A stretch of DNA of 61,992 bases, filler included, from Stramenopiles sp. TOSAG23-3 (Eukaryota), in assembly GCA_900128585.1 (NCBI GenBank). It is 6 parts of 6 records of this genome, joined end to end, with 100 filler letters (N's around TTAATTAATTAA, not from the genome) between each part and the next. Parts side by side here need not be neighbours in the genome. Positions count along the whole stretch, not along the records: positions 26,697 to 53,280 come from LT642273.1; 5 more parts are not named here. One strand, given 5' to 3'. Below the pieces are notes generated by a model, which made no database searches, was not told the DNA's origin, and saw only the letters and a list, made by a program, of their open reading frames with translations. Position numbers and translations under genes: made by a program. Position 1 is the stretch's first letter; each line of letters opens with the position of its first letter. Shown piece after piece: positions 299 through 51,872 of the stretch.

Positions 299-3106
299 CT
301 AAGCTTTGAACCCGACAATACAAAACGATTTAAACTCCTCAAAGTTCATGTTGTCTTCGTCAACGGTCTTCAGTTTCATCATCGCACCATTGAAACCCTT
401 GCGTTTGCTCAAAGGGCCAAGGGTTTGGGACTTCAGGCACAGCTTTTTTACGTCCGGCATCGATTTGAAGGCAAACAGGAACTCTCGTTTCCCCATTTTT
501 CCAGTGCCCTCTTGGTCGACAGTGTTGAAGATGCGCTGCAACAGGGCATCCTCGTTCGCAAGTTTCCCGTCCGACTTGACGCTCGCACTGAGGTCCATCT
601 CGTTCGATTCCCTTTCCTTTTCGGCATTTTTCCGTATTTTGTCTTCCATCATTTGTTGAAAAACTTCATCGTCCTTTTGGACCGATTCTTTCGTTGCCGT
701 TGACAGCAAGAAGGCTTCGAACTCTTCAAAGGTGATTCCCCCTTCGCCATCCGTGTCCATTGCCATAAAAGTCCTGGCAAAATCCCGATCGCGCAGCAGT
801 GGCTGCAACAACGGGGACATCTTGACCAACGAAATAACTTCGTCATTAATTCGGAGGGCCGTCATCAGTTCGTGCTTGTCGACACTCCCACTCTTGTCCT
901 CGTCTATTAAATTAAAAATGTGCTTGAACCTCTTCCTTTGCTCCTCGTTGAATTTGACCCGGTTCTCCTCCGCCTCTCGAGCCATTCGACGTCGTTCTTT
1001 GCTGCTAATGCGGACGGACTTTTTCTTCTTTCGGAATATTCTATTTGGGTCCGCCCTCTTCTTTTTTCCCGTCGTGGACGTTTTGGAGGTTATGGGCGCC
1101 AGCACGGCAGTGCTCTTGCTCCCTTTCAGCCCCATGCCGACGGACAGCTCGGACAAAATATTTGACGACTCCCCCGTCATCCCGTCGGCCTCCGTACGGT
1201 TGAGCGCGGACGTGCTTTGGCTGCCTTTCCGGTTCTTTAACTTTTTCAACCGCCCAGGCTTCGTTGTTACATCGATCTCGGGCATTTTTGGGATGCTCAC
1301 GGATTTCCCGGAGATTTCCATCCACTCTAAATGGTTTGCTGCCAGCAGGGACGAGCTCGCAGTTCGTTGCCTGGAGGCAATTTCCCTCGCGTCTATCTCC
1401 GGCGGCACGCCAGTTTTGTCGTGTATTTTGTGCATGTGGGGAAGCAGGTTAAAACCCTTGTCTTCCACCGACAGCAAAAAGTCGCGCGCCGCTTTTGGGG
1501 GCGCAGAGCGAATGGAGTTCAAGGCATGGAACACGCTCGCCGGGGCGTCTATTCGGGTGGTGTCATAGACTTCGTCCATGCGGAACCCAGTCGTTTCCCA
1601 CCGGTTCGGCAGGTGGCTAACGAACGTCGAGGACGGCCAACGGTAGGACAGAATGTTTTGGGAGGAGTGGGACAGGTAAAAATCGCCCATGTACTTCTCC
1701 CGCGTTGCAGTCTGATCCCGTGCTAAGTTGAGGTTTTTGGCCCTCTTTTGGTCGTTGAACTCCGCTAGCCACAGCTTGTGCAATTCGTCCAAGCGTTCAA
1801 AGTTTTCGCGGCTTCGACTTTCCTCGTCCTGCTCTATCATTTTTTTCAGCCGTTCCCTGCGGTCAAGCTCCGCGCGGTCGACCCCCCAGAATCTATCGAT
1901 GGCTCTCTGGGCAGCCTCTTCCCTGGTCATTTCCCGCATTCGCTCCCGTTCTGCTAACATTTCTACTTTACGCCCGGCGAACATTTCCTTCCTTCGCTCA
2001 ATGGCCTTTCTCTTCTCTTCCTCCTCCCTCTTCTTGCGTTCCTCCTCCTGGAGCTTCATTCTCCGCTCCACCTCGAGCCTGTGCTGTTGTGCCTGTTTCA
2101 TAAAGTCTATGCCCCAGAACTTGTCGCCCTTCGAAGACTGCTCTAGCTCTGCTTTTGCCATTGCCATATTTGCGCTCCTCTCCTTCTCCCGCTCTCGACG
2201 AACGAGGGCCTGGGCCTCCTTCCGCGCCATCTCCTCCGCCCGCTTGGCAACCTCCTTCTGCCGGTCTCCCGGGGACATGTTTTCGCGCGCATTTCGGGCA
2301 ACCCTCATCCTCTGCTCAATGGCACGGCGCCGAAACATGCACTGCATCGCTAAACTTGCTTTCAGGATTGGGGGCTTTCTCATATCGAGCGCCATCTCTG
2401 GTGCCCAGTCATGCGGTACGTCGAACTGCGAAGTGCCGGCCCAGTTGTTGAAAAAATAGTGGGCGTGCGTTCGAGGGTCCCACACTTTTGAGTATTTGAC
2501 ATAGTTCTTGTGCTCCCCCTTCGGGAGAGAGTAGTCGTACATGTCTCCCTGGTCAGGCTCATCCCACCGTATGTTTCCGTTCCCAATGTCGTACCAGTAG
2601 TTCAAACGCGCGTGCGGGTCGTACAGTCTTTCCCACCGCAAGTGCGACCCCACGTGGTCCATATGGCGCGTGGCACGCTGGACGCGCACCCGGCGGCGGC
2701 CCTGGTGGTTCCGGACCATATTTTGCAGTTTTTGTATCGCCGTCAAGTAAACCGGCTGTTCGCCCAGGCTTTGCTTTGCGAACAGCGGGGGTTTTTCGTT
2801 CGTACTTTCCGCGCTGTAATTGTTGTAATAGTAGTAGTTTCCTGGGCGAACAACTCCGCGCTCGTTCGTTCGACTGTCCCAGAGCTCCGACCACTCCGGG
2901 TTGGAGCTTCGGTTCGCCACCTTTACGGCGAACTTCGGCTCCGTCGGCAAATCGTACGACGTTTCGCCCGTATTTGCAGCGTAATAAAACACACCATCAC
3001 TATCCTGCTTTTCTGTCCAGCCCCAAGGTAGACGTGGCTGTCCAGGGACGAGCGCCGTTTTGCTAGTCTCAGCAGCGTCCTCCGACAGTTTCCCTTCGCT
3101 AGACAT
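299..3106 (-). CDS. WW-domain, IQ-motif, coiled-coil and EF-hand protein
   Basis: First ATG at 3106 (MSSEGK). WW repeats (LPWGWTE..FYY..NTGETSYDLP; WERLYDP..YWY..G.IRWDEP), IQ-like motifs (IQKLQNMVRNHQGRRR; LAMQCMFRRRAI), EF-hand loops (DEDKSGSVDKHEL, DTDGEGGITFEEF, DQEGTGKMGKREF). Confidence 0.85.
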   Translation of the reverse strand: MSSEGKLSEDAAETSKTALVPGQPRLPWGWTEKQDSDGVFYYAANTGETSYDLPTEPKFAVKVANRSSNPEWSELWDSRTNERGVVRPGNYYYYNNYSAESTNEKPPLFAKQSLGEQPVYLTAIQKLQNMVRNHQGRRRVRVQRATRHMDHVGSHLRWERLYDPHARLNYWYDIGNGNIRWDEPDQGDMYDYSLPKGEHKNYVKYSKVWDPRTHAHYFFNNWAGTSQFDVPHDWAPEMALDMRKPPILKASLAMQCMFRRRAIEQRMRVARNARENMSPGDRQKEVAKRAEEMARKEAQALVRREREKERSANMAMAKAELEQSSKGDKFWGIDFMKQAQQHRLEVERRMKLQEEERKKREEEEKRKAIERRKEMFAGRKVEMLAERERMREMTREEAAQRAIDRFWGVDRAELDRRERLKKMIEQDEESRSRENFERLDELHKLWLAEFNDQKRAKNLNLARDQTATREKYMGDFYLSHSSQNILSYRWPSSTFVSHLPNRWETTGFRMDEVYDTTRIDAPASVFHALNSIRSAPPKAARDFLLSVEDKGFNLLPHMHKIHDKTGVPPEIDAREIASRQRTASSSLLAANHLEWMEISGKSVSIPKMPEIDVTTKPGRLKKLKNRKGSQSTSALNRTEADGMTGESSNILSELSVGMGLKGSKSTAVLAPITSKTSTTGKKKRADPNRIFRKKKKSVRISSKERRRMAREAEENRVKFNEEQRKRFKHIFNLIDEDKSGSVDKHELMTALRINDEVISLVKMSPLLQPLLRDRDFARTFMAMDTDGEGGITFEEFEAFLLSTATKESVQKDDEVFQQMMEDKIRKNAEKERESNEMDLSASVKSDGKLANEDALLQRIFNTVDQEGTGKMGKREFLFAFKSMPDVKKLCLKSQTLGPLSKRKGFNGAMMKLKTVDEDNMNFEEFKSFCIVGFKA

Positions 3107-18932: not shown

Positions 18933-19793
18933 TCCGAGGGCAAGAATGCAGTACGGCAGATGGTTTGTTACGACCTTGATTGGGCCATACGATGCACTTG
19001 CGACACGCTTTCCTTTAATGGCTAATTCTAAGACAATGATGATGCATACATTCCAAGGCAACAAATCTAATCCATATAATGATAATGTGGGCCGTATATG
19101 TATTAATATCTATATGTTATTTTTATGCATTTCTTTGAAATCATCATCATGTTTTTTGTTTGTTGAACTTCTTTTTGTTTTGTTCACTTCATCAGTGGTG
19201 TGTTGTTGTTGTTGTTGTTTTTTTATTAATAAAAAATAAAAAAAAATATATAATAAATAATTATTTTTTCAATAATAATAATACTCCCATCCCTGCTGTT
19301 GTATCCCTCTCGGTGTCAATGACAAATATTTTTTAATAGCTAGATACAATATTATTATATAAAGTACCAGTATTAATTAATGGACGATTATTAAAAAATC
19401 AAAAATAAAATAAAAATAATGTACCTGGTAATACTGGTATTAAAACCTTCGTACCACCGTACTACCATTGGTAACTACTACATAATAAAATACTACGGTA
19501 GGTACCTGGTACCCACCACCAGAGAGACCAGCAGCCAGCAGACCAGCAGATGGAGATATTATTATTATCGATGATGATGATAAAGAAGAAGTTTCAAATA
19601 AACAGTATCACAAAATTATTTACACAAATGAATATATATATATAGGATAGGAAACGAAACGTATAGAGATGATTATGTTCAATTGTTCGGTGTTCTGAAT
19701 ATTGTTTTAGAATTCGTTCTTTCCCACCCCATTTTTTGTTTCCTTTCGTTTTTGTCGACGGTGCCTTTTGATTGACTATATATCAACTTCACC

Positions 19794-32587: not shown

Positions 32588-33699
32588 TCTGAATCGCAAA
32601 GTCTGCAACCGTCGTTGGGTCCAACAGTGCGGAACCGTACTTTCTAAAAGAATGGTCGAACGGTCGTCAATTTCAAACGCTACAGAATTGCTCTGTTTGA
32701 CTGCTTCAAGATTTAACAATCGTCCCTTAGTTCATTCACACCATGTGATTTGCCGCAGTTGGTTAAATACCTGAACGGTGAGGATCATTATAGTGGTAAT
32801 AATAATTATTATCGCAAGAAGAAAACGAACTAACGAAGAAAGAACGAATTAATAATAATAAAAAAATAAAAACAGTTGTTGCGGTGGTGGTTGTTATCTT
32901 TGTTATCCATTGGATGATGCTGTGGTGATGGAGGATGCGTGCTGACGAATTGCATTAGATTTCTTTCATGCATAACGGCCGTGGTGTACATACTCATTCG
33001 GACACTTTTTCCATAGACTGACTGACTACTATTGAACTAGGAAGGAAGGAAGGAGCTGGCGGCTGGCGGTTATCATTTTTTAATAATAATAAGAATACAG
33101 CATTCAATAGTACGACCTCGTTGTCGTCAGTCGGTTTCTATTATTTAGTACTACGAGGATCTATTATAATAGCACCAGTATTATTTATATATAGTGGTAT
33201 AATTTAAATTATAATTTAAACTATTTTACTCCTTCATTCTTTTGACCTTGTTGAAAATATTAAAGATTGTCATTTTTTTATATTTAATAGTCTATAATAG
33301 ATTAAGACGGGACAGGACGACAGACAGTTGTTGTTTTAAATAAATAAAAATTATTATTTCCTTCTTCTTTCTTCTCCCATTCTTCCCTTCTTCTTTCTTC
33401 TTCTTCTTCTTCCATTTTTTTTTTTTTTCGTATAATTAATTATTAAATAATTTAAAATACATCGGTTATTTTTATGAATGATCAGAATTTATAATGCTTG
33501 AGGAACTCACCGTGCTAGTTAATTTTTTAATTTTTTACAGTTGAGAAACAAGTCTTTCAGTAATAGTAATTTATTCCCATCAATTTCATAGAAACGCATT
33601 TAAACGCGGACGTGTTTGCTTCGTTTCCTTGTTCAGGTAAACTGCGTCGCCTGTGACGTGCCATGGTTCAAGGTTAAACACTTTTATTTAAATTCAGCA

Positions 33700-36600
33700 A
33701 TGTTCGGAAACAAAGCCAAAACTATTGTAAAAAAGCTGGAACCATCCAACTTCTTCGCGCTGGAAGAGGCAGATCAGACCGCTGCTTTGGATGCCCTCAA
33801 CGATTATGCAACGACGCAAAGTAAACTCAATCAATTGGTGGAGGAAGATATGTTGGGCAGGTTTGGAAGAATTATCCGAGGTGCAAACAAAGCGCATCTC
33901 TTACCGGCAGTTCACCACAAACTCATGAGCACCGTGCAAACGTTTGCAAAGATTGAAAGTTTTAGGACGAAGTTCGGCGTTGACTCTGGTATGTGCGGAA
34001 TATTAATGACCGAAATTGGAAATTTGATAAGTACTGTCGACAGCTTAATATCTTCTTCCGAAGCCGCGGCTCTCAACCAAAATTCTAGGAGCCGCGAAGT
34101 AAAAATGAACATGCGGCTCAAGATGGCAAAACCACACGACCATCCTTTTAAGGTAAAATTTGGAACCGGACCTCTGGGATTTAAACTGACGCCAGAAAAT
34201 ACAAAAAAGAAGACCGGGGCCGTCATAAAGTCTATAGTCCAGAACAGTTTAGGTGGCAAAGAAAAGTTAGTCAGAGTCGGAGACCGCATCGTTGGGATGA
34301 ACAACGTGATGTTCAAGAATGTTAAATGCGAAACGATAAGAAAGAAAATAAACAAGAGCAAACGGCCCGTCGAAATAAACTTCATAGGCTTGCGAGATGG
34401 GGAAGAAATAAAAGCGATAGACGAGGAGGCCATCTCTCGGATCGAGGATGAGAAAAAGAAAAGAATAGACAACGAGTTAAAAGCTCAAGGGAAGGACTTG
34501 GAAAAGATAGCTCTAAAGAAGGAAAAAAAGAAAGGAGAAGCGTACGAGTACGAAGCAACGTTCGGGAAAGGTCCCCTGGGCCTCGATCTCCGATCCAGGA
34601 GAAAAGATGGACGTGGAACCGTCATCAAGGATGTCCTTGAAGGCGGGCAGTCGTCTAAAATGGGGGGGATCAAAGTCGGGCACAGCCTCGTAGGAATAAA
34701 TGGCGAAGACATTCGTAATGATTATGCAGTGGAAACAATACGATTGCTGAAAAAGGCCAAGCGCCCACTTGTCTTAAGGTTTCGGGGGATAGAACTGATC
34801 AGACCGCCAGGATTCGAGTACGAAATCTCATTCCATCCGGGTCCGATGGGAATGGAATTAGAGCCTCGTGAAATTTTGAGTAGCAACGGGGCCATAGTTG
34901 TTAGTATTGCGCCAAATAGTCAAGCAGATCATGATGGGGAGCTGCACGAGGGCCATCAAATTATTAAAGTTGCTGACAAGGAATGCAAGAATCGCACGTT
35001 GAAAGAAATTAAGAAACTCTTGATTTCCGCTGCTCGTCCCTGTAAAGTAATGTTCCAAATTAGAGATGTGGAGAAAGAAAATGCGCTTGAACGGAAAAAG
35101 GATTTTGAAGCGCAGGCTCGAGTGGAAGCAAAATTAGAGGAAAAACGTGCGCCTGTGAAAACTGTTGTGCTAGAGAAAGGCCCTCATGGCATTATGCTCG
35201 AACTTATCCCTGGGCAGGCCAGAGGAGTGCGAATCCAGCGACTTGCTCGAAGCAGTACGGCTGAAGCGCACAAAGACCTAAAGGTAGGATTAGAAGTTCT
35301 CGAAATCAACAATGAAGATTTTAAAAATCGAGCCCTCGTACCAGCACAGAAGAAGATTAGCAAATTTCCGTACCCGATGACCATTGTGGTCCAAGACAGG
35401 TGGCTTACCCACTACAATGATGGTAAGCGCCTCGCCGTGGCCGAAAACGAACATAACATATTTTGGTCAGAAAGGAACCCGGCTCTCGACTTCACGCTAA
35501 AAGTTAATCCAGGGTCACCTTATGGTGCTATCGTTGGAACGGTGAAACCAGAAATTCAGCAAGGTTTTGCAGCTATGAATGGATTGAAAGTCGGGTACCC
35601 GTTGATGCGTATTAATGACGTTGACTGCACTGCGTTGACGAAAATAAGGATTGACGAGCTGATGCGAAACGCAAGAAACAACAGGCCATTGACAATTACA
35701 TTTATGAAAATGACGGATGAAGAAATTAAAGCAGCGGAGACAAAAGGGCACAAGGCGCGGATAGCTGGAATTACCTCGAAAGTGGGGAAAAAGAAAGTGA
35801 ATTTGCGTGGCTTGCTGTGGTCCATGGCGCCCAAAGCCAAGAAAGAGATTAAAATGCCTCAGAATGCGGAGTTAGCCCTGGAAGTAATTCCTGAATATGC
35901 CAAGGTACTGTTTGAGTTGTGTCTAAATGCTGAATGTGTTCGAGCAACGTGCCATGAAGACTCATTTGAAGTTCTTTGCAAAGGCATTCAAATATTCAAC
36001 AAAGTAACCAGTCGCTCAAAAGACACAGTCTTGCCAATGCTTCTAAAACTTTGCTCTGTTTTGATCGATAGCCCTAAAGGCGTGGAGCGATTTCTGCGTG
36101 CTTCGACGCTCTTGCGAATGTGGATAGACACGCTATGGAGTGAAAACAACATAGCTGCATTGCACCAATTAGCTGGACTCCTTTACAAAATTACAGTCGC
36201 AGAAGAGTCGCTTAAGCATAAGGACTACGCACCAGTGTATATTTTCCGTGTAAGTGTAAACAAGTTGAACGATCTGGGCGAAAAAATGCTGGCCAATAAA
36301 ACCGACGGGCACGCGTGCTACGAGACAATCGGGAAAATTTGCTGCTTCATAGTTGAAAAAGATCATTACAGAAAAGATATTTTGGAGGCGCATTACAAGC
36401 CTCCTGGCTTTGCTGGTTTATGGACTCTTTTAGCGAAGTCCAGAAAGTTACCGGTCATCTCAATTACCACTAGTTTAATTGCATGGGTTAGTCTAGATAA
36501 ATCGCACAGTTTGTATGCTCTCCAACCAAAAAACCCAAGGGCATGTATTGTCCCACCCTTCAACTCTATTCACGTCCTTGTAATGTCCATGCACAGAACT

Positions 36601-39600
36601 TCCTCTCAAAACGCCCAGGTAGTCTTTGAATATGAAGCAGTTTTTGAGCAAGGGTCGCTCGGTCTTCAGCTGGACAAGAGGCCAGGTAAGCGAACTGGAG
36701 TAGTCGTGCATGGAATTCGGGACGGTTCCCAGGCCGACCTCTTGGAGACTATTGAAGTTGGTGATATCCTCATCGGAATTGAGGAAACAAACACGGAAAA
36801 ATTCACTTTGGAGAGGGCTATGGCAACATTGAAAGGGGCTTCCCGGCCTCTGAAATTGAAGTTTAACAAACCAAATATAGGTTCAGAGGATCCCTCCAAG
36901 ACAGCCGAATTCGACGGCAAGTTCGGTTCTGGATCAATGGGAATTAGACTAGATCATATACCCGGACTTACTTCAGGGGCTATAGTTACTCATGTAGAAG
37001 AAGGTTCTCAGGCGTCCACGATGGAACGTTTGAACAAAGGAGACGCGGTTGTTGCAATTGCAGGGAAGAATGTGGAAGACAGGACTTTGCCGCAGATAAT
37101 AAAACTCCTTCACGCCTCAAAACGCCCGATGTTTGTGACTTTTCGGGATCCAAACCCAAAGTCAGAGCGCGATCTCATGGCTGACTTGCACTTGATAAGT
37201 GCAACCAGGCTTCTGGGAGCAATACTCAAGTATCATACGAGTCCCGGTGCTATGGCCATTCGTTTAACGCAAAGACGGACGGAGCTTAGCGCGAGTGCGA
37301 GGAAGAAAAAATCTGGAATGCAATTGCTGTCCCGTTTTAAAGCGAAAAAGGCTGGGAAAAAAAGTGATTTAGAAGATCAGAAAGCAGAAAGTGAGCTAGA
37401 GCATGCAAAAATATCGTTGGATCATCCATTAGAAGGAATTTTAAGGGTTGAAGATGCTGAAATTTTGACGGAATTAGTGTTTGGAAGAATTCTTAGGACG
37501 CCCCATCCATCGTATGATTTAACATTTCATATGTTCGAAGTCGTCGAAATTATAACCTCTGTCGACCCAGACCGGGTGAGCAATCTTAGCATACCGGCAT
37601 TCATACATATGGCGACTATGCCAGAAGACGACGTTGACACGGAATTCTTGCCACATGTTCTGGAAGCCGCAACCGCGTCAGTAAACCGAATAGTGCTGAA
37701 GTATGGTACTGTGATAGGGGAATTGCTGGTCGCGAATGGGGCAATGTCCTTAGTCGCAAATGCGTTCAACCGTTGCAGGCAGTGTGCTCGTCAGCCGGAG
37801 GATCACCCTTTTTTGAATGCCGATATAGAGATTCTAAAGTGGAATTTTCAAGTGACAAATCTACTGTGCAGTATTGGAGCAGTCAGTTCGGAGCAGATTC
37901 AAGTTATACTTAGAGAGTCAGGGTCCCAGTTCGTTCCAACTTTGTACTTCTTGGCAGACACATTTCGGACGCTTGTTAGGACTGAAATGGAAAATGAAGA
38001 CGCCTTGAAAGAGCAAGGCGATGAAGATGGCGACGGTATTATCGACGACCCATATATTCTGGAGGATGTAAAGCACATCGAGGCTCGAGTAAAAGTGTTA
38101 CGAAACATTCAAGCGCAACTGTACGAGGGCATCTTCAGGCTTTGCAGAAACAACACCCCTTGCAGGGACGAGCTTTCTGAAAGCAAGTACATTCCAGCGA
38201 CAGTCAATGGAATCGGCTCGATGGCCCTGGTTGGAAGCCGGTTGTCGAACCAAGGGCTAGTAGCCCTCTCTCGGCTGTTGCTCTTGCTAACATTCGACGA
38301 AGACCGTTTAGACCCTATACTGTCCGACAAAGGGGCCGTTTCATTAGTACGCGTTTCGTGCAGTGCCTTTACCCGTGCTCTAGTGTCGGAGGATTCAGAA
38401 TGGGACGATTTTGGAGGCATTAGCGTGCTGCTCCAAAACTTGGGGCAAGTAGTGAGCCAAGTACTGCGACTGATAGATATTGATCACGTACTGGATCACA
38501 CCGGAGGCAGGCCCCTGTCAAGGCCCTTGGTCCTCAGAGTCTGCCAGCTGTTGGGACGACTCTTAAATATTCGGGAACAAAAGTACGTTGACAACGTCAA
38601 GTCAGCAGTTTTTTCTTTGGTGATAATTCTGTACGAAATGGCGTCCGTGAATGCAAACCGTATGATGCTGGTTGAAGAGGAGGCCCCGCTTGTTCTCTGC
38701 AACGTCATTTGCACCCCGATATTTTCAAAAAATGTAATGATTTCTGCAGCTGGAGCATTTTTCAATATAACATGCAACAAGGGCACGGTGATTGAATTGC
38801 AGGACCCTAGCCAAGGCAGCGAGCTAATGCGGCTCGCAAAATGCCTGGAAATCCAAGCCGACAACCATACTCCTCACTGCCAAGCCTTGATGATTTCTGC
38901 GATTCGGAACATTGTGCAAGGCGTAAGAAATAAAGCGATGAAGGCGGCGGCTGGATGTAGATTTTTGGTGCCCACGTTGTGTGTCTATCTAGCAGAATCG
39001 GCGCACGTGACTGGGATAGCCAGCATCATTACCACGAAAACCTTTGGCGAGGAAGATGAGGTATTCTTACCATCTCTTGCAACCGAGTCATTGGAGCTCC
39101 TGAAGCTGATCACGCACATAAAACCTGTTGATTTGAAGGAGACAAGAGACCGTGTTTTGATGGGACGAAAACGTTTTCCAGCGGGGCTAATGTCTTTGGA
39201 CACTTTAGAAGAACTACGAAAAATTCGGGCCGAATACAAACAGAAGGAGGCAAAAAGTACTGTCAATCAACAGCACAAGGAGGAGTCCGAAGATAATGAT
39301 TTTTTCGACATGGAGATTACCCTGGATGACAAAGACGCTGTGTTTGACGAGTACGATCGCGTTGAGGACTCCCCAAGAGTTTTGCAGGCCGCCGCGGTTA
39401 GGAGAAGCGGGGAAAACACGGTTAATATTGTAAAGTGGGTAGATTTTGAGTTTTGGTCGAATGAGATGAAAAATTCAGGAGTTGCGGAACAGCACCGTAA
39501 TAAAATATTATCTGAAGAGCGCAAAGGGCTTAAACTTTCCAACGCAGCAGCAACAATCTTTGACACAGAAACGAACGAAACAAGCAAATCTTCTCATCAC

Positions 39601-40050
39601 TTGGGAACGATCACAACGAGGTCCTTTCTCGAGCACTACGAAGACAACGGAAGGGAGGAAGAGAGACTTAAGGGCAACCTCATGGAAGTTGATGCACTTT
39701 ATGATTTGAACGAAGAGTTGAAGGTCAAGCAGCGAAGAGAACGTGAAATCATGCACGACAGACTTAGAAACGCAAAACAAACCACCGTGAACCATTCGAA
39801 AGTGTCGAAAAGTGAGCTGGGGCGACTTGCAAGAAATATGATGCAAAGTGGCTTTTTTGGAGAAAGATTGGAATCGCACTCACCGGTAAACATCAAGAGG
39901 TATAGTGATACGTTTGATTTGTCTGCTGCAACCGCAGATGGGATTGATTTGTCCACTAAAAGTACTAATTATTACCTGCACAATACCGATTTTCCGCAAA
40001 CGAACGACGACGGGGGTATTTTTGCAGAAAAATTCCGGTACACCGTCTGA
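33700..40050 (+). CDS. Giant multi-PDZ protein with ARM/HEAT-like helical repeats
   Basis: Seven PDZ-like units (GPLGFKL, GPLGLDL, GPMGMEL, GPHGIML, PALDFTL, GSLGLQL, GSMGIRL, mostly ending in RP..(I/L).F) embedded in Leu-rich helical sequence; first ATG at 33700. Confidence 0.88.
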   Translation: MFGNKAKTIVKKLEPSNFFALEEADQTAALDALNDYATTQSKLNQLVEEDMLGRFGRIIRGANKAHLLPAVHHKLMSTVQTFAKIESFRTKFGVDSGMCGILMTEIGNLISTVDSLISSSEAAALNQNSRSREVKMNMRLKMAKPHDHPFKVKFGTGPLGFKLTPENTKKKTGAVIKSIVQNSLGGKEKLVRVGDRIVGMNNVMFKNVKCETIRKKINKSKRPVEINFIGLRDGEEIKAIDEEAISRIEDEKKKRIDNELKAQGKDLEKIALKKEKKKGEAYEYEATFGKGPLGLDLRSRRKDGRGTVIKDVLEGGQSSKMGGIKVGHSLVGINGEDIRNDYAVETIRLLKKAKRPLVLRFRGIELIRPPGFEYEISFHPGPMGMELEPREILSSNGAIVVSIAPNSQADHDGELHEGHQIIKVADKECKNRTLKEIKKLLISAARPCKVMFQIRDVEKENALERKKDFEAQARVEAKLEEKRAPVKTVVLEKGPHGIMLELIPGQARGVRIQRLARSSTAEAHKDLKVGLEVLEINNEDFKNRALVPAQKKISKFPYPMTIVVQDRWLTHYNDGKRLAVAENEHNIFWSERNPALDFTLKVNPGSPYGAIVGTVKPEIQQGFAAMNGLKVGYPLMRINDVDCTALTKIRIDELMRNARNNRPLTITFMKMTDEEIKAAETKGHKARIAGITSKVGKKKVNLRGLLWSMAPKAKKEIKMPQNAELALEVIPEYAKVLFELCLNAECVRATCHEDSFEVLCKGIQIFNKVTSRSKDTVLPMLLKLCSVLIDSPKGVERFLRASTLLRMWIDTLWSENNIAALHQLAGLLYKITVAEESLKHKDYAPVYIFRVSVNKLNDLGEKMLANKTDGHACYETIGKICCFIVEKDHYRKDILEAHYKPPGFAGLWTLLAKSRKLPVISITTSLIAWVSLDKSHSLYALQPKNPRACIVPPFNSIHVLVMSMHRTSSQNAQVVFEYEAVFEQGSLGLQLDKRPGKRTGVVVHGIRDGSQADLLETIEVGDILIGIEETNTEKFTLERAMATLKGASRPLKLKFNKPNIGSEDPSKTAEFDGKFGSGSMGIRLDHIPGLTSGAIVTHVEEGSQASTMERLNKGDAVVAIAGKNVEDRTLPQIIKLLHASKRPMFVTFRDPNPKSERDLMADLHLISATRLLGAILKYHTSPGAMAIRLTQRRTELSASARKKKSGMQLLSRFKAKKAGKKSDLEDQKAESELEHAKISLDHPLEGILRVEDAEILTELVFGRILRTPHPSYDLTFHMFEVVEIITSVDPDRVSNLSIPAFIHMATMPEDDVDTEFLPHVLEAATASVNRIVLKYGTVIGELLVANGAMSLVANAFNRCRQCARQPEDHPFLNADIEILKWNFQVTNLLCSIGAVSSEQIQVILRESGSQFVPTLYFLADTFRTLVRTEMENEDALKEQGDEDGDGIIDDPYILEDVKHIEARVKVLRNIQAQLYEGIFRLCRNNTPCRDELSESKYIPATVNGIGSMALVGSRLSNQGLVALSRLLLLLTFDEDRLDPILSDKGAVSLVRVSCSAFTRALVSEDSEWDDFGGISVLLQNLGQVVSQVLRLIDIDHVLDHTGGRPLSRPLVLRVCQLLGRLLNIREQKYVDNVKSAVFSLVIILYEMASVNANRMMLVEEEAPLVLCNVICTPIFSKNVMISAAGAFFNITCNKGTVIELQDPSQGSELMRLAKCLEIQADNHTPHCQALMISAIRNIVQGVRNKAMKAAAGCRFLVPTLCVYLAESAHVTGIASIITTKTFGEEDEVFLPSLATESLELLKLITHIKPVDLKETRDRVLMGRKRFPAGLMSLDTLEELRKIRAEYKQKEAKSTVNQQHKEESEDNDFFDMEITLDDKDAVFDEYDRVEDSPRVLQAAAVRRSGENTVNIVKWVDFEFWSNEMKNSGVAEQHRNKILSEERKGLKLSNAAATIFDTETNETSKSSHHLGTITTRSFLEHYEDNGREEERLKGNLMEVDALYDLNEELKVKQRREREIMHDRLRNAKQTTVNHSKVSKSELGRLARNMMQSGFFGERLESHSPVNIKRYSDTFDLSAATADGIDLSTKSTNYYLHNTDFPQTNDDGGIFAEKFRYTV

Positions 40051-44137: not shown

Positions 44138-44424
44138 AGGAAGTTATTTTAATCTTCTTCTCCTCATCACCATCAATTCTTCTATATTATTATATTATTA
44201 TTTTTTCCTCCGACGACCGACGATCTCGAATCTTCTTTCTTCTTCTATCTCTTGCTGCTTCGCGAAAAGAAATGTTGTAATTGAAAAAATTCTCAAGAAG
44301 ACATCATAATGAACAAACAGATGCGATCGATTAAACTGAAAAGGAAAGATTTACCGTCGTGATTCAGTTGTACCTTTTTTGTTTGTTTAAATATTTAGTA
44401 TTAGGTTGGTATTTGGTGCAAACA

Positions 44425-47373
44425 ATGGACGAGGATAATTTATACGACGAGTTTGGAAATTACATAGGCTCTGACCTATCGAGCAGTGAAGGCGATAGCT
44501 CCAGCGGCGAGCGGGACGGGCAGGCGAACGGGGCACACGGGGATGGTGAGTTGGCTGCGAACGGTCATGGTACAAACGGCACGGGGGGGGTTGCATCTTT
44601 TGCGGAAGATGTGGAAATGGCAGACTCGACGGAGATTGTTCTGCACGAGGACAAGAACTACTACGCCTCGGCTTCGGACGTGTATGGCGCGGGCGTAGAA
44701 ACGTTGACGATGGAGGAAGACACCCAGGACATTTCGGAGCCGCTGATAAAGCCGATAAAGCAAAAGTCCTTGAATATGAACGAGAAGGACATTCCAAAGA
44801 CCAAGTACGACTCGAGCTTCATGACTGGGATTATGAGCAACGTCAGTCTGACCAGGAACGTGTGCGTCGCAGGGCACTTGCACTCTGGGAAGACGAACTT
44901 GTTGGATATGCTCATCGAAGAGACGCACGAGGACCGCTGGGGCCTGGACAGCGAAACGAGGTACACCGACTCTCGCAAGGACGAGCAGAGTCGGGGCATC
45001 AGCCTAAAGTCTACCCCGGTGTCTTTGGTGATGCAAAATTCGAGGAGCAAGAGCTTTCTGTTCAACATTATCGATAGCCCTGGCCACTCGTGTTTTTCGG
45101 CAGAGCTGAGCGCGAGCATGCGGTTGTCCGACGGCGTAGTGCTTGTCGTGGACGCTGTCGAGGGGGTTTTGATGCAGACAAAGCATGCCATTCGTGAAGC
45201 ATCGCAGGAGGGCGCCCCGATGGTTCTTGTCATTTCAAAGTTTGATCGGCTCATTCTAGAGCTCAAACTACCCCCGAATGACTGTTATTTGAAGTTTCTT
45301 AAGATAATCGAGGAGGTCAACAGCTTCTACAACTTGGTGTCGGGGAGAAAGTCCGGCAGCGGCATCCACGTGTCGCCCCAACTTGGCAACGTGATCTTCC
45401 AGTCTTCAAAACATCGCTGGGCGTTCACCTTGGACAGCTTTGCGGCACTGTACGCGCAGCGCTACAAATCGTCCAGCGGAAAGGACATGAACCACCTCGC
45501 GCTCGCCCAGCGACTTTGGGGCGATGTGTACATGGACACAGCTACTCGGAAGTTTCGGGTCGAGGCAATAAAGCCGAGCGACCCCAGCTGTGAGAGAAGT
45601 TTCGTCGCCTTCGTGCTAAACCCCATTTACAAGTTGTACTCGCACGTAATTGGGGAAGAAAAAGAGGCCATGAGCGCCGTGTTGGGCGCGGCCGGCATCG
45701 TCTTAAAAAAGAGAGACTACAAATTAGACCCACACCCGTTGCTGCGCTTGGTAATGAGAAAGTTTTTAAAAAACAGCGTGTCTGCCATTGTCGACGCGAT
45801 GGAGATAAAGATCCCTAGCCCGGACAAGGGGGCACACAAAAAGGTCGTCCGGCATTATCGCGGCGGTATGTCCAGTGCGCCTTCGCAGTCGATGCTGAAA
45901 AGTGACCCTCAGGGGCCCCTCGTCATCAACGTAGTGAAGCAGTACCCGGCCGCGGATGGCAGCAGTTTCATGTGCTTTGGCAGGATTTATAGTGGGACTG
46001 TGAAGGTGGGGGACAGGGTTCGCGTTTTGGGAGAGCAGTACACGGTGGCCGACCAAGAGGACATGGGGGTGGCGACCGTGAAGGCAATCTCTTTGAGCCA
46101 GGCCAGGTACAAGGTCGACGTGGACAAGGCGTCTGCGGGCGCCCTGGTACTGCTCGAAGGGATTGATCAGACCATCGGAAAGACGGCAACAATAACGAGT
46201 GTACCGTCTTCGGGCCCGTCAGGGACCGACGTGAACGAAATTGAGATATTCTCACCGCTTAATTTTTTTACAATTCCCGCGTTGAAAGTCGCCGTGGAGC
46301 CTTTGAAGCCCTCCCAGCTCCCCAAGCTGGTAGAAGGGCTACGAAGCGTTAGCAAGAGCTTCCCGTTAGTAACAACAAAGGTTGAGGACAGCGGTGAGCA
46401 CATCTTGTGCGGCACGGGAGAGCTGCACATGGACGTCGCACTGCACGATTTGAGGGTGCTGTTCAGCAGCATAGAAGTGAAAGTGTCTGACCCGTCCGTT
46501 GCCTTTCGGGAGACTGTGGTCGAACAATCGTTTGTTAAGTTGGACGCCCTGTCCCCAAACTCTAAAAATCGAATTTCAATGATTGCCGAGCCAGTCAACA
46601 AAACGCTGGCGAGTCACATTTCAAGCGGCAAGTTCGATACGTCGTGGGGTGAAAAAAAGATGAGCTCGGCGCTGAGAAAAACTTACGGTTGGGATGCCCT
46701 TGCTTCTCGTTCAATCTGGGCGTTTGGGCCATCCGCAGGCGACACCAACATCCTGCTAGATGACACGCTCCCGGGCGACGTAGACAAGACTTTGCTGTCG
46801 AGCGTCCGAGACAGCGTGGTTCAGGGTTTTCGTTGGAGCACCAGGGAGGGGCCGTTGTGCGACGAACCGATGCGTCAAGTAAAATTTAAAGTGATCGACG
46901 CCTTAGTTGCCAGCGACGGAATTCATCGCGGCGCCGGCCAAATTATTCCAACGGCACGTCGAGCGACGAACAGTGCGTTTTTGAACGCGTCGCCCCGCCT
47001 GATGGAGCCCACATTGCGAGTTGAGATTGTGGCGTTGGAAGATACGGTCCGCTCGATTTACAAAATCGTTGGTGGGCGCCGCGGAAACATCGTAGACGAT
47101 TATAAGCAGCAAGGAACACCCTTTCGCGTGCTGATTGCCCACATTCCTGCAATAGACGCGTATGGGTTTGAAACTGATTTGCGGATTCGGACCCAAGGGC
47201 AAGCGTTCTGCATGCAGGTCTTTGACCATTGGTCATTGGTGCCTGGGGATCCGTTGGACGATAACTTTATCGTCCAGCCGTTAGAAAAGGCTCCAACCGC
47301 GGCCCTTGCCCGTGATTTTATGGTAAAGACCAGGCGGAGGAAAGGGTTGGGGGATGTAGTCGTAACATTTTAA
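44425..47373 (+). CDS. EFTUD2: U5 snRNP GTPase Snu114/EFTUD2
   Basis: MDEDNLYDEFGNYIG, IVLHEDKNYY, GHLHSGKT, GTGELHMD..LHDLR, GWDALASRSIWAFGP, TREGPLCDEP, FETDLR..TQGQAFC, ARDFMVKTRRRKGL. Confidence 0.97.
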   Translation: MDEDNLYDEFGNYIGSDLSSSEGDSSSGERDGQANGAHGDGELAANGHGTNGTGGVASFAEDVEMADSTEIVLHEDKNYYASASDVYGAGVETLTMEEDTQDISEPLIKPIKQKSLNMNEKDIPKTKYDSSFMTGIMSNVSLTRNVCVAGHLHSGKTNLLDMLIEETHEDRWGLDSETRYTDSRKDEQSRGISLKSTPVSLVMQNSRSKSFLFNIIDSPGHSCFSAELSASMRLSDGVVLVVDAVEGVLMQTKHAIREASQEGAPMVLVISKFDRLILELKLPPNDCYLKFLKIIEEVNSFYNLVSGRKSGSGIHVSPQLGNVIFQSSKHRWAFTLDSFAALYAQRYKSSSGKDMNHLALAQRLWGDVYMDTATRKFRVEAIKPSDPSCERSFVAFVLNPIYKLYSHVIGEEKEAMSAVLGAAGIVLKKRDYKLDPHPLLRLVMRKFLKNSVSAIVDAMEIKIPSPDKGAHKKVVRHYRGGMSSAPSQSMLKSDPQGPLVINVVKQYPAADGSSFMCFGRIYSGTVKVGDRVRVLGEQYTVADQEDMGVATVKAISLSQARYKVDVDKASAGALVLLEGIDQTIGKTATITSVPSSGPSGTDVNEIEIFSPLNFFTIPALKVAVEPLKPSQLPKLVEGLRSVSKSFPLVTTKVEDSGEHILCGTGELHMDVALHDLRVLFSSIEVKVSDPSVAFRETVVEQSFVKLDALSPNSKNRISMIAEPVNKTLASHISSGKFDTSWGEKKMSSALRKTYGWDALASRSIWAFGPSAGDTNILLDDTLPGDVDKTLLSSVRDSVVQGFRWSTREGPLCDEPMRQVKFKVIDALVASDGIHRGAGQIIPTARRATNSAFLNASPRLMEPTLRVEIVALEDTVRSIYKIVGGRRGNIVDDYKQQGTPFRVLIAHIPAIDAYGFETDLRIRTQGQAFCMQVFDHWSLVPGDPLDDNFIVQPLEKAPTAALARDFMVKTRRRKGLGDVVVTF

Positions 47374-48993: not shown

Positions 48994-50612
48994 TATTTAG
49001 CGTCGCCTGTATGTACAAAAAACTATCAGCTACTTATTACCCCCCTGACAGCGGCACCGTCCCCCTCCTCTGCACACACACACGTTCTCCAACAGTAACC
49101 TCTCTAACGCTCAAATTCCTTCAATCTCCTGGGCGGCCTTTGGTTGTACCGTTCCAAAACGTACCAACCACTGACTCGTGTTGTTAATTGTTTAACGTGT
49201 AAATGTATCGGTGGATGTGATCATTTTGCATTAAAATATGGTATTCTTTGTAGTTTGATGTGACGAGACCATTTACATACATGCAATAATAATTTTAAAT
49301 GATTGTTGTCTTCTTCTTCTTCAACATAATCTTCTTCTACATTATTATTATTAATAATATTAGAACTTCATCATCGTCGATCAGAGAAGAGGAGGAGAGG
49401 AGGGAGAGGAGAAGACGAGTACTAAAAAATAATTTAAAAAAAAAAAATAGAGATGTTGTTATTCTATGTTGTACTCTTTTCTCAATTGCGCGAAAGTATT
49501 AATTAAAATAATTAAATATAGCGCCTAATAATACAGTACAAAATAAAAGAAAGAGAAAGAAGAAGTAGAAAAGGAAGGAGGAAATGAAACGGTAGTGAGG
49601 GGGTTAAAATGATAGTATGATTTTAAGTTGTAGTCTCCATTGGTAATTAAATACAACATAATACAATTGGAGCACACCTGGGTATAGTGAGTGTAGAGTA
49701 CGAAGAGTAGAGAGAGAGAGAGAGACGACGGACGTGACGTGACGTGGTGGTGGTGTCAACACACTCAACCGACACATACCAAGGCACAGCAGCCAAGAAG
49801 AACACCTCCTTATTTAGTTGAGTTGTAAATCGCATTAGGATGGACTACGTACTTATTATTGCATTCTTTATAGTAACTGAAGGAGCTTTTTCCTATCATC
49901 AAAAAGCAACGTTGGTGAAGCAATGAATGAGAGAAAGAAATGAAATGAAATGAGATTGAGTTGAGGCAACGAAGCGATTAAGCAATTATGGAGGGGAAAG
50001 AGAAAGAACGGAGTGATGAAGTAAAGTAGTATTAATACCAAGTACTTGGTATAATAGAGGGAAGGGTAGGTAAAAAGTGATGAAAGGAGAACCACAACCA
50101 ACCATCAGTAAAAAAAAAAAAAGCCAATTTAAAATTAAAGACAAAAGCATTTGTAGATAAAAAAATACAGTAATGATATGACGGTGTTAATAAATAACTT
50201 ATTTTTAACACTATCAATACTTATGTAAAACAATAGTGTACACAAGATACGAAATGTATTTATTTTTTTTATTCTTGCTTGATTATTTTGTCTTATTTTA
50301 TACATTATTTATATATTATTTATTTGTTGTAAAACATTAAAAGTAATGATAACCATTCAAACTGTACACCACAAATAACACCACACAAGCCTAACAACCA
50401 AAAAATAATGGAAAAAAAAATGAAAAAAATGAAAAAAATTAAAGAAAACAATTCTCATCATTAGAGCTGTAATATTACACAGTACACACCACCACCATTT
50501 GCACGCACCAGAGTCTGCGACACGACGTCCTTCCGGATACGAGCTTGGGGTATGAGGCTCTCCCTTTTCAAAAAGCTTTTCGAGGTAGGAAGAATAAAGG
50601 AACGTTTTTCTT

Positions 50613-50797
50613 ATCAGTTCTCGGCTTATATAGCTTAGATCTAGTGTAGTATCTGTTCTATCAATCATGAAAGATTGATGGGCGACTAAGGTCGTCCTCA
50701 CTTTTATGCAAATTTCTTAAAGGAGGTATTGTGGATGCGCTTGCGCACCTTTTACGAGCTTGGCAACTGGATTGCACTGCACCAGTAAGACGAGCAC
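50613..50797 (+). ncRNA. U2: U2 spliceosomal snRNA
   Basis: 5' ATCAGTTCTCGGCTTATATAGCTTAGATCTAGTGTAGTATCTGTTCT with branch-site pairing GTAGTA; stem IIa ATCAATC/GATTGAT; IIb GGCGAC/GTCGTC; IIc CATGAAAG/CTTTTATG; SL III with GCTTGC tip; SL IV ACTGG-ATTGCACTGCA-CCAGT. 3' end approximate. Confidence 0.95.
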
Positions 50798-50804
50798 TCC
50801 TCAT

Positions 50805-50871
50805 ACGCTATAGTATAATGAAAATACACCCACTTTGGTGGGAAATCGAGGGTTTGATTCCCTCGTAGCGT
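50805..50871 (+). ncRNA. tRNA-like cloverleaf lacking a canonical anticodon loop
   Basis: Acceptor ACGCTA/TAGCGT, TA, D arm GTAT-AATGAAA-ATAC, arm CCCAC-TTTG-GTGGG, AAAT, T arm CGAGGG-TTTGATT-CCCTCG; all stems are Watson-Crick. Confidence 0.85.
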
Positions 50872-50880
50872 TTTTTTTTT
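50871..50880 (+). terminator. Oligo-T tract, candidate RNA polymerase III terminator
   Basis: T10 immediately after the tRNA-like element; T-runs are common in this genome, so function is inferred from position. Confidence 0.6.
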
Positions 50881-51872
50881 ACGTACGACACGTGAGTCTG
50901 TGTACGAGCCATGAACCCCCTCTCCATTCTGAGCATGTTGCTCGACTGCCAGGTCACCCTCATTTCGTCTTCACGAAGCGGCGCGTTGCGAAAAATAAAC
51001 GTCTACCAAACGGGACGCTTGTCTCTTTGATAGAACAAGAAGAAAGTGGGCGCGTGTACACTTTTTACTTCCGACCACCCCTTCGTACAGAACAGAAAGT
51101 GTTCCTCCCTCTCGCTTCCATTCCCTGTTCGCTCTGCCTCTCACGCACAGTGCGTGATTTCAGGGAAGAAAGAAGATGCCTTCCTTCAGAATTATTACAA
51201 TACGTTAATAGTACTCTTTATCTACAATACCATACCATCATTATAGCATAACACAGTTTTCTTTTGATAGGAAATTTCAGCAAGATACTATTGACCTGCT
51301 AGAAAAAAAGAAGAAAGAAAGAAAGAAGCTTTTTCTAATTTTAAATTATTTATTATAATGGAGCTGCTTTGGTTCTTTGTTGGTTACGAAATTATAAGAG
51401 CTATAAAAAAGAGGAGATTTTTATATTAATATTTTTATTCTTCCTCCTCCCTTTATTTATTTTTTATTAATTAACTATTTACTACTACTACTTGAAGTAA
51501 TAAGTAGTATAATTTATAATTAATAATAATAACAGAGTTGGAAAAGTTGTATAGTAGTAATTGAAATATATTTTAGAACTGTTTCGTTGGAGAATGTATT
51601 TGAAGAAAAAGCAAGAAAGCAAGCAATCAATCAAGAAAGCATGCAATTGACTATACATTCGTTGTTCTTCTCCTTTTAGATTCTAACAAGTTAATTCATT
51701 ATCAACGGGAACAGTTGGTTTGTTTTAAACTACGTAACATATTGGGTCGTTGAACAGTTTTTTGGTTGTTGTAGATTATTTTTAGTCATATATCGATATT
51801 CCAAGAAATCAAATGGAAAAGTTGGGCAGTGGATTCCCCCTCCCCCTTCATCACTAGTAACCTTTCGCCGAA

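Follow-up and report, generated by a model that had tools for sequence, protein, structure and literature searches.

A non-decoding tRNA-like element directly behind a U2 snRNA gene in a stramenopile: a candidate 3′-end processing module

Introduction

RNase P and RNase Z recognise the stacked acceptor and T stems and the elbow of a transfer RNA (tRNA), not its anticodon. To our knowledge, 3′ cutting marked by a tRNA-like structure is at present known from no more than a few long non-coding RNAs, and 3′-end formation of small nuclear RNAs (snRNAs) outside animals, plants and yeasts is, as far as we know, largely unknown. Here we describe a 67-nucleotide (nt) tRNA-like element, called the mimic below, which directly follows a U2 snRNA gene in DNA from Stramenopiles sp. 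TOSAG23-3 (GenBank assembly GCA_900128585.1, record LT642273.1). The stretch of DNA analysed (61,992 nt, made of joined records of this genome) is referred to as the window, and positions count along it. Our analysis suggests, with a probability of about 0.45, that the mimic is a 3′-end processing module of the mascRNA/MALAT1 type that has become fused to the U2 gene. Among the literature matches listed, as judged from titles and the beginnings of abstracts, none had a tRNA-like structure behind an snRNA gene as its 3′-end signal.

The nearest likeness is to mascRNA/MALAT1 and MEN-beta (NEAT1_2) of vertebrates, where a stable nuclear non-coding RNA is likewise followed, directly behind its mature 3′ end, by a tRNA-like structure with a non-canonical anticodon arm. 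According to one report, the 3′ ends of MALAT1 and MEN-beta are made by RNase P at these structures (PMC6152437). The stramenopile locus differs in that the partner is a 190-nt spliceosomal snRNA rather than a long non-coding RNA, the host is a protist, a run of ten thymines (T10) follows the element and cleavage is predicted. The triple-helix element that enters the comparison with mascRNA would not be needed by U2. An Rfam search of 91 nt containing the mimic returned no mascRNA family, same-clan matches being collapsed to the best one.

That report also describes a tRNA-like structure in Arabidopsis GUT15 whose anticodon arm is non-canonical; it arises by processing of a longer transcript, and CCA is added to it (PMC6152437). 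It differs from the mimic in lying within an intron of a long non-coding RNA made by RNA polymerase II, in defining no snRNA end and in having three bases between the acceptor and D stems, where the mimic has two.

A tRNA-like structure coupled to U2 is known from Leishmania major. Its single U2 gene is reported to be accompanied by a degenerate, transcribed tRNA-like sequence which lies upstream of U2, beside a divergent tRNA-Ala gene, and whose conserved boxes A and B serve as an RNA polymerase III (Pol III) promoter (PMC4950102). The mimic, in contrast, lies downstream of U2 in the same orientation, is separated from the U2 3′ end by 2 nt and lacks C56 in its B box; the trypanosomatid-type arrangement of an upstream tRNA-like with a divergent tRNA was not found at the window U2. 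The branch-point-binding region of trypanosomatid U2 is non-canonical, unlike that of the window U2. In plant tRNA-small nucleolar RNA dicistrons and the tRNA-microRNA units of gammaherpesvirus 68, the tRNA part is co-transcribed with its partner and separated from it by tRNA-processing nucleases; the tRNA leads the transcript and brings the Pol III promoter, and the RNA behind it is released by RNase Z. The order at the stramenopile locus is reversed, and RNase P would define the end of the partner.

Results and Discussion

The mimic abuts a U2 gene

The features of the locus, all on the plus strand, are as follows.

50613-50802 (+): U2 snRNA gene, Rfam RF00004, 110.1 bits (gathering score 46), E 2e-21
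50803-50804 (+): spacer AT, 2 nt, between the end of the U2 model and the mimic
50805-50871 (+): the tRNA mimic, 67 nt, from its fold, a cloverleaf descriptor and an Rfam tRNA match
50805-50810 / 50866-50871 (+): acceptor stem, 6 base pairs (bp), from dissection of the sequence
50811-50812 (+): connector TA (U8 A9), in the register with 6-bp acceptor and 6-bp T stems (6+6)
50813-50827 (+): D arm with a 4-bp stem (50813-50816 / 50824-50827) and the loop AATGAAA, read as A14 A15 U16 G18 A19 A20 A21
50828 (+): A26, the single base between the D arm and the anticodon arm
50829-50833 / 50838-50842 (+): anticodon-arm stem, 5 bp
50834-50837 (+): anticodon-arm loop TTTG, 4 nt
50843-50846 (+): variable region AAAT
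50847-50865 (+): T arm with a 6-bp stem (50847-50852 / 50860-50865) and the loop TTTGATT, read as T54 T55 T56 G57 A58 T59 T60
50871-50880 (+): T10 run, overlapping the acceptor stem by one base (its first T); 50872 is the would-be discriminator

The U2 match is full-length (model positions 1-192), with the GUAGUA branch-point-binding stretch and stem-loops I-IV present, and by its sequence this U2 is canonical. Its longest internal T runs are two T4 runs, at 50702 and 50750, and there is no T5 in U2 or its Sm-site region. The first base of the mimic lies 2 nt past the end of the U2 model on the same strand (50802 to 50805), with no T run or other spacer in between, so that the cloverleaf abuts the U2 model end as a mascRNA-type element would. 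The T10 run at the other side of the mimic is a candidate transcription terminator, which in RNA would be an oligo-U trailer. Since the window has only 24 T runs of eight or more in its 61,992 nt, a start of such a run exactly at the acceptor end is unlikely by chance (∼1 in 1000). The whole locus sits in a 2.9-kilobase (kb) AT-rich spacer between protein-coding open reading frames (ORFs).

The mimic folds as a stable cloverleaf

A preliminary description of this DNA, made from the sequence, had set out a cloverleaf with an anticodon loop of only 4 nt, and this could be confirmed. All 21 of the 21 stem pairs in 50805-50871 are Watson-Crick, the loops are TTTG and TTTGATT, and the minimum free energy (MFE) structure calculated with ViennaRNA is a cloverleaf of −24 kcal/mol. 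Dinucleotide shuffles of the mimic gave a mean of −12.8 ± 2.6 kcal/mol (z −4.25), and none of 200 was equally stable. When a 270-nt precursor running from the U2 start to the T run was folded, the cloverleaf formed a separate domain behind stem-loop IV of U2.

The acceptor and T stems can be partitioned in two ways. The MFE structure has a 7-bp acceptor stem, closed by U50811-G50865, and a 5-bp T stem (7+5), and the centroid structure has the 6+6 register at the same energy. The 12 stacked acceptor/T pairs that had been described are therefore present whichever register is taken. The finer geometry of that description (U8, an A15-U48 pair and the 2-nt connector) is valid for the 6+6 register only, and position 48 is C in the Rfam alignment. 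Shifts of this kind are familiar from tRNA-Sec, whose 9/4 and 8/5 partitions redistribute pairs over the two stems at a constant stack length; tRNA-Sec has 13 stacked pairs and decodes, whereas the mimic has 12 and is non-decoding.

The minus strand of the mimic folds equally well (z −4.42), because all of the pairs are Watson-Crick. As the fold is strand-neutral, the strand of the element is set instead by the sequences of its T and D loops, by the Rfam match and by its co-orientation with U2 and the T run.

How often such structures arise by chance was gauged with our own cloverleaf descriptor, which specified a 7+5 stack, a connector of 1-2 nt, a D stem of 4 bp with a loop of 7-11, an anticodon stem of 5 bp with a loop of 3-9, a variable region of 4-5 and a T loop of 7, G-U pairs being allowed. 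On both strands of the window (2 × 61,992 nt) there was one perfect match, the mimic. Over 60 block-shuffled windows there were two perfect matches (0.033 per window) and 70 with at most one mismatch (1.17 per window). The sole one-mismatch match in the window itself, at 19172-19242, was treated as a chance occurrence. The T arm of the mimic occurs only once in the whole window.

The mimic is derived from a tRNA and cannot decode

In the 91-nt search, the mimic was matched by the Rfam tRNA family RF00005 with 35.5 bits (gathering score 29, E 1.4e-6) over 50805-50872 (+) and model positions 1-71. The alignment deletes position 7, keeps a 5-bp T stem and places C at position 48. U8, A9, A14, G18, A21, G53, T54, T55, A58 and C61 are all kept; G19 is changed to A and C56 to U, and three of the seven anticodon-loop positions are absent. 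By its sequence the mimic is thus clearly tRNA-derived. The preliminary description had also held that the invariant G19-C56 pair is replaced by A19-U56; the alignment bears out both substitutions, and the two new bases could pair.

The mimic is also clearly unable to decode, as had been proposed, because its anticodon loop has only 4 nt (TTTG). The features of a decoding tRNA that it lacks are the 7-nt loop in which U33 and a purine at position 37 accompany the anticodon, the G18 G19 motif and the G19-C56 pair. ARAGORN found no tRNA genes over the whole window, and the Rfam tRNA match to the mimic was not reported in searches of 701, 2891 or 61,992 nt, presumably because the filters of these wider searches drop it. 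As a point of method, default Rfam filters can hide degenerate tRNA-like sequences.

A scale for these scores is given by five contigs (L001-L005) from another marine eukaryote lineage, in which there were 91 Rfam tRNA matches. Of these, 87 scored 54.6-74.9 bits; the remaining four, at 31-39 bits, had abnormal anticodon loops or were cut at an end. When 77 tRNAs from these contigs were compared with the mimic, the nearest was tRNA-Pro(AGG), identical at 45 of 67 positions, followed by Arg (44) and Lys (42). The likeness to tRNA-Pro(AGG) is a weak hint, at the level of sequence, of an ordinary tRNA ancestor.

The distribution of changes within the mimic is uneven. Two of 11 normally invariant loop positions are changed, and every one of the 42 stem nucleotides is paired (p = 0.04, one-sided Fisher test); in addition, three anticodon-loop bases have been lost. 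The two changed invariants are the partners of the elbow pair, and A-U pairing remains possible between them. For the earlier claim of compensatory change under selection for RNA shape, the p value and a pairable A19-U56 are suggestive. They come from a single sequence, and a random double change at 19 and 56 would pair about one time in three, so that selection on the shape of the mimic is weakly supported.

A possible route to the U2 3′ end

We propose that a single primary transcript would start at the U2 start (50613), run through the mimic and end in the T10 run. Within it the mimic would fold independently, its predicted secondary structure probably adopting an L shape with a 12-bp acceptor/T stack. 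Nuclear RNase P would then cut between 50804 and 50805, producing the 3′ end of U2. With a cut at this point, position −1 would be U, and U2 would keep a single-stranded tail of 9 nt behind stem-loop IV, 2 nt beyond the Rfam U2 consensus end. The position of the mimic suits the processing model very well: it lies 2 nt past the U2 model, and therefore a cut at its 5′ side would give U2 of normal length. The oligo-U trailer could be taken off by RNase Z or the La pathway, with CCA perhaps added to the 67-nt RNA.

Both the U at −1 and the T10 trailer would fit processing of a pre-tRNA-like kind. The reduction of the anticodon arm to a stem with a tetraloop would also be expected, since nothing in the proposed pathway reads the anticodon. 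An extended form of this proposal is possible if doubtful: that in an uncultured marine protist lineage U2 and the mimic form a dicistron whose U2 3′ end is set by RNase P instead of by Integrator and a 3′ box or by RNase III, the mimic being retained for its shape only (12-bp stack, re-paired A19-U56 elbow and a tetraloop instead of the anticodon) and perhaps giving the precursor access to tRNA chaperones or export factors (La, exportin-t) until it is removed.

If the processing module is real, it would be a compact, Integrator-free solution to U2 3′-end formation that uses enzymes present in every cell. It would also carry the MALAT1/mascRNA principle beyond the long non-coding RNAs of vertebrates, to a protist and to a core spliceosomal RNA. 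The mimic would further be a natural experiment on the substrate requirements of RNase P and RNase Z, with its 6+6 or 7+5 stack, A19-U56 elbow and no anticodon loop. If the mimic is merely a relic, the finding is ordinary.

Possible promoter and terminator functions

Trypanosomatid snRNA genes are driven through tRNAs or tRNA-like sequences, and yeast U6 has a B box downstream of its gene. The A- and B-box-like sequences of the mimic could likewise be a TFIIIC-binding element that drives or boosts Pol III transcription of U2, with T10 as the terminator. The mimic B box agrees with nine of the ten specified positions of the consensus GGTTCGANTCC, T10 would be a strong Pol III stop, and read-through of U2 by Pol III is conceivable since U2 contains no T5, its longest internal runs being T4. 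According to reports on Leishmania, U2 of L. major relies on boxes A and B of the neighbouring transcribed tRNA-like (PMC4950102, PMC6463643). The mimic is instead downstream and on the same strand as U2, and lax filters revealed no tRNA-like over 176 nt ahead of U2 (E ≤ 10) or over 181 nt beyond the T run. Its A box fits only six of nine specified positions of the consensus TRGCNNAGTGG.

The single B-box mismatch falls on C56. In Dictyostelium, one study reports that a C56G change abolishes TFIIIC-dependent targeting of a retrotransposon (PMC5391098), and in a cryo-electron microscopy study, which numbers by gene position, base-specific contacts are made in that part of the B box (PMC11724288). 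The preliminary description had held that C56U weakens the B box. The Dictyostelium result makes this reasonable; the argument from it is indirect, the substitution being a different one. The T10 run right after the mimic resembles a Pol III terminator, so that a Pol III contribution is conceivable.

Two boxes would suffice for a promoter, which leaves 21 intact pairs and an anticodon stem capped by a tetraloop unexplained. We therefore agree with the earlier preference for processing over a promoter, because the geometry differs from that of trypanosomatids, the B box is without C56, the A box fits at 6/9 positions and a promoter needs no stems. A promoter role for the mimic appears quite improbable in this light. 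The processing and Pol III models are not mutually exclusive.

Alternatively, a TFIIIC/Pol III complex or the folded RNA together with the T run might act as a roadblock that stops the U2 polymerase, the transcript being trimmed back to stem-loop IV by exonucleases. T10 does lie behind a stable structure, and the 2 nt ahead of the mimic offer no other obvious 3′ signal for U2; a generic, bacterial-type scan also lists the T arm and T run as terminator-like, a result which is not meaningful for a eukaryote. A simple hairpin would be enough for termination, however, and a full cloverleaf with tRNA-type T and D loops exceeds that need. Exonucleolytic trimming through a 67-nt structure of −24 kcal/mol would also be harder than one endonucleolytic cut. 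We regard a roadblock as very improbable.

Other U2 loci and the possibility of a relic

Several observations weigh against the processing module and are taken together here. The first concerns the elbow, where the chance of about one in three for A-U pairing, given above, is a matter of simple arithmetic. The second is that a T10 behind an acceptor stem is an ordinary feature of Pol III tRNA genes, so that the mimic may be transcribed as a separate unit.

The third comes from other genomes. A metagenome scan for a U2 anchor followed after 175-205 nt by a B-box-like motif found no homologous U2-mimic locus; it returned five loci, which belong to a single different lineage and have a true tRNA-Trp. 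These are the contigs L001-L005 introduced above, and their U2 genes are as follows.

L001 660-840 (−): U2 gene
L002 3867-4047 (+): U2 gene
L003 1230-1411 (+): U2 gene
L004 142-322 (+): U2 gene
L005 838-1015 (−): U2 gene

The order tRNA-Gly(CCC), U2, tRNA-Trp(CCA) was found in 5/5 of these loci, with differing neighbours farther out. Between U2 and the canonical tRNA-Trp (69.8 bits) there is a spacer of ∼18 nt with TTTT. Therefore, adjacency of U2 and a tRNA can arise by clustering without fusion.

In viral contigs, none of 52 loci matching the U2 anchor had a U2 context, and the 19-nt T arm of the mimic had no match. In genome contigs there were 43 loci with 35 distinct U2 genes (eukaryotic contamination in prokaryote bins), none of which carries the element. 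A T-loop motif or ARAGORN tRNA abutting U2 was seen in 0/35 of these distinct U2 genes of other eukaryotes, and a true tRNA-Leu lay ∼150 nt downstream of U2 in 1/35. A tRNA-shaped element fused to U2 is thus unusual, as none of the 35 other U2 genes has one, and this rarity speaks for the processing module.

One of these contigs (L084, a eukaryotic contig placed in a prokaryote bin) has behind its U2 a repeat containing GGGGGATCGAGTCCC, which did not fold as a cloverleaf. The minus strand of the same contig carries two copies, ∼20 and ∼200 nt behind U2, of a GC-rich motif whose core GGGGGATCGA resembles a T arm; the motif forms no cloverleaf.

The fourth set of observations comes from sequencing runs, for which only the assembled contigs of Logan were used; these cannot show the start, end or strand of an RNA. 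A 371-nt query for the locus was partly present in 20 of the 24 runs listed, two of the 20 being possible source runs of the window. Runs X3-X14 held shares of 0.78-0.92 of the query; 11 of them are provisionally marked as DNA, X4 is of unknown kind, and 10 are labelled marine metagenome. The locus therefore recurs in marine metagenome runs. Six RNA rows held it as well, with shares of 0.41-0.49.

Four runs (X16, X8, X15 and X17) were compared with the window. The pieces from RNA libraries, at a depth of 2-4.2, covered 50570-50763 (X16), 50646-50796 and 50820-50969 (X15) and 50738-50899 (X17), the last spanning the U2/mimic junction and the T run. They also cover the flanks outside U2 at 50570-50612 and 50881-50969, and may be carry-over of DNA. 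Given the low depth, the coverage of flanks and the possible DNA, nothing was concluded from these contigs on transcription, processing or ends. In X8, a DNA contig covering 50595-51100 departs from the window at three positions, 50893, 50921 and 51031. The mimic, U2 and 104 nt of upstream spacer are identical to the window, and the three differences fall in 229 nt downstream. This identity is uninformative on constraint, because zero differences in 67 nt has a probability of ∼0.4.

The mimic could instead be a relic or a free-standing tRNA-like Pol III gene whose contact with U2 has no role in U2 biogenesis. A tRNA neighbouring U2 would have lost its anticodon loop and become a young pseudogene, or a separate small RNA ending at T10. 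The mimic does score as a tRNA with T10 directly after it, as in Pol III tRNA genes; U2 lies among tRNA genes in all five loci of the other marine lineage; and the identity to tRNA-Pro(AGG), weak when the next best tRNAs reach 42-44 of 67, hints at an ordinary ancestor. Against this, the mimic is far from a working tRNA, at 35.5 bits compared with 54.6-74.9 bits for 87/91 of the L001-L005 matches, and in spite of that distance all 21 of its pairs are Watson-Crick. Both its A and B boxes are off consensus, with C56 changed to U, which should weaken autonomous transcription by Pol III. The 2-nt gap to the end of the U2 model would arise by chance with a probability of only ∼1e-6, on the arithmetic of 0.033 perfect cloverleaves per 124 kb. 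A relic or independent gene is in our judgement unlikely.

Neighbouring genes and further tRNA-like sequences

The window also contains, at 33616-40050 (+), an uninterrupted ORF of 2144 residues with at least six PDZ domains (Pfam PDZ, 180.9 bits, six stretches) and a long C-terminal region without a family match. Closer to the locus, an ORF for Snu114/EFTUD2, the GTPase of the U5 small nuclear ribonucleoprotein, lies at 44359-47373 (+), 3.2 kb upstream of U2, so that two spliceosome components are neighbours. Its closest relatives are environmental proteins (60-61% identity). The best named match is a raphidophyte transcript (51%), and fungi, animals and algae reach 48-50%. The window is eukaryotic, and by these identities its source would be a marine protist, possibly a stramenopile.

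In contigs L001-L005, U2 is found inside a very dense tRNA array, with 26 tRNA genes in 3 kb in L004. The array of L001 directly follows a ribosomal DNA unit with small-subunit, 5.8S and large-subunit (LSU) genes, and a 5S gene lies among its tRNAs. A second tRNA-like sequence was observed ∼90 nt downstream of the 3′ end of LSU ribosomal RNA, at 2584-2655 (+) in L002 and 2196-2267 (−) in L001. It scores 39 bits as an Rfam tRNA, and has an abnormal anticodon loop according to ARAGORN; in its fold (z −4.39), an 8-bp stem carries a UUAA tetraloop and the D loop lacks GG. This non-decoding element may be an analogous 3′-end signal for ribosomal RNA, and the case hints that non-decoding tRNA mimics are a recurrent 3′-end device for stable protist RNAs.

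A well-formed tRNA with the anticodon CUA (69 bits, called ‘Pyl’ by ARAGORN) is also present in these arrays, at 1481-1553 (+) in L001, 3127-3199 (−) in L002 and 500-572 (−) in L003. Its occurrence in a nuclear array points to a possible sense reading of UAG in this lineage.

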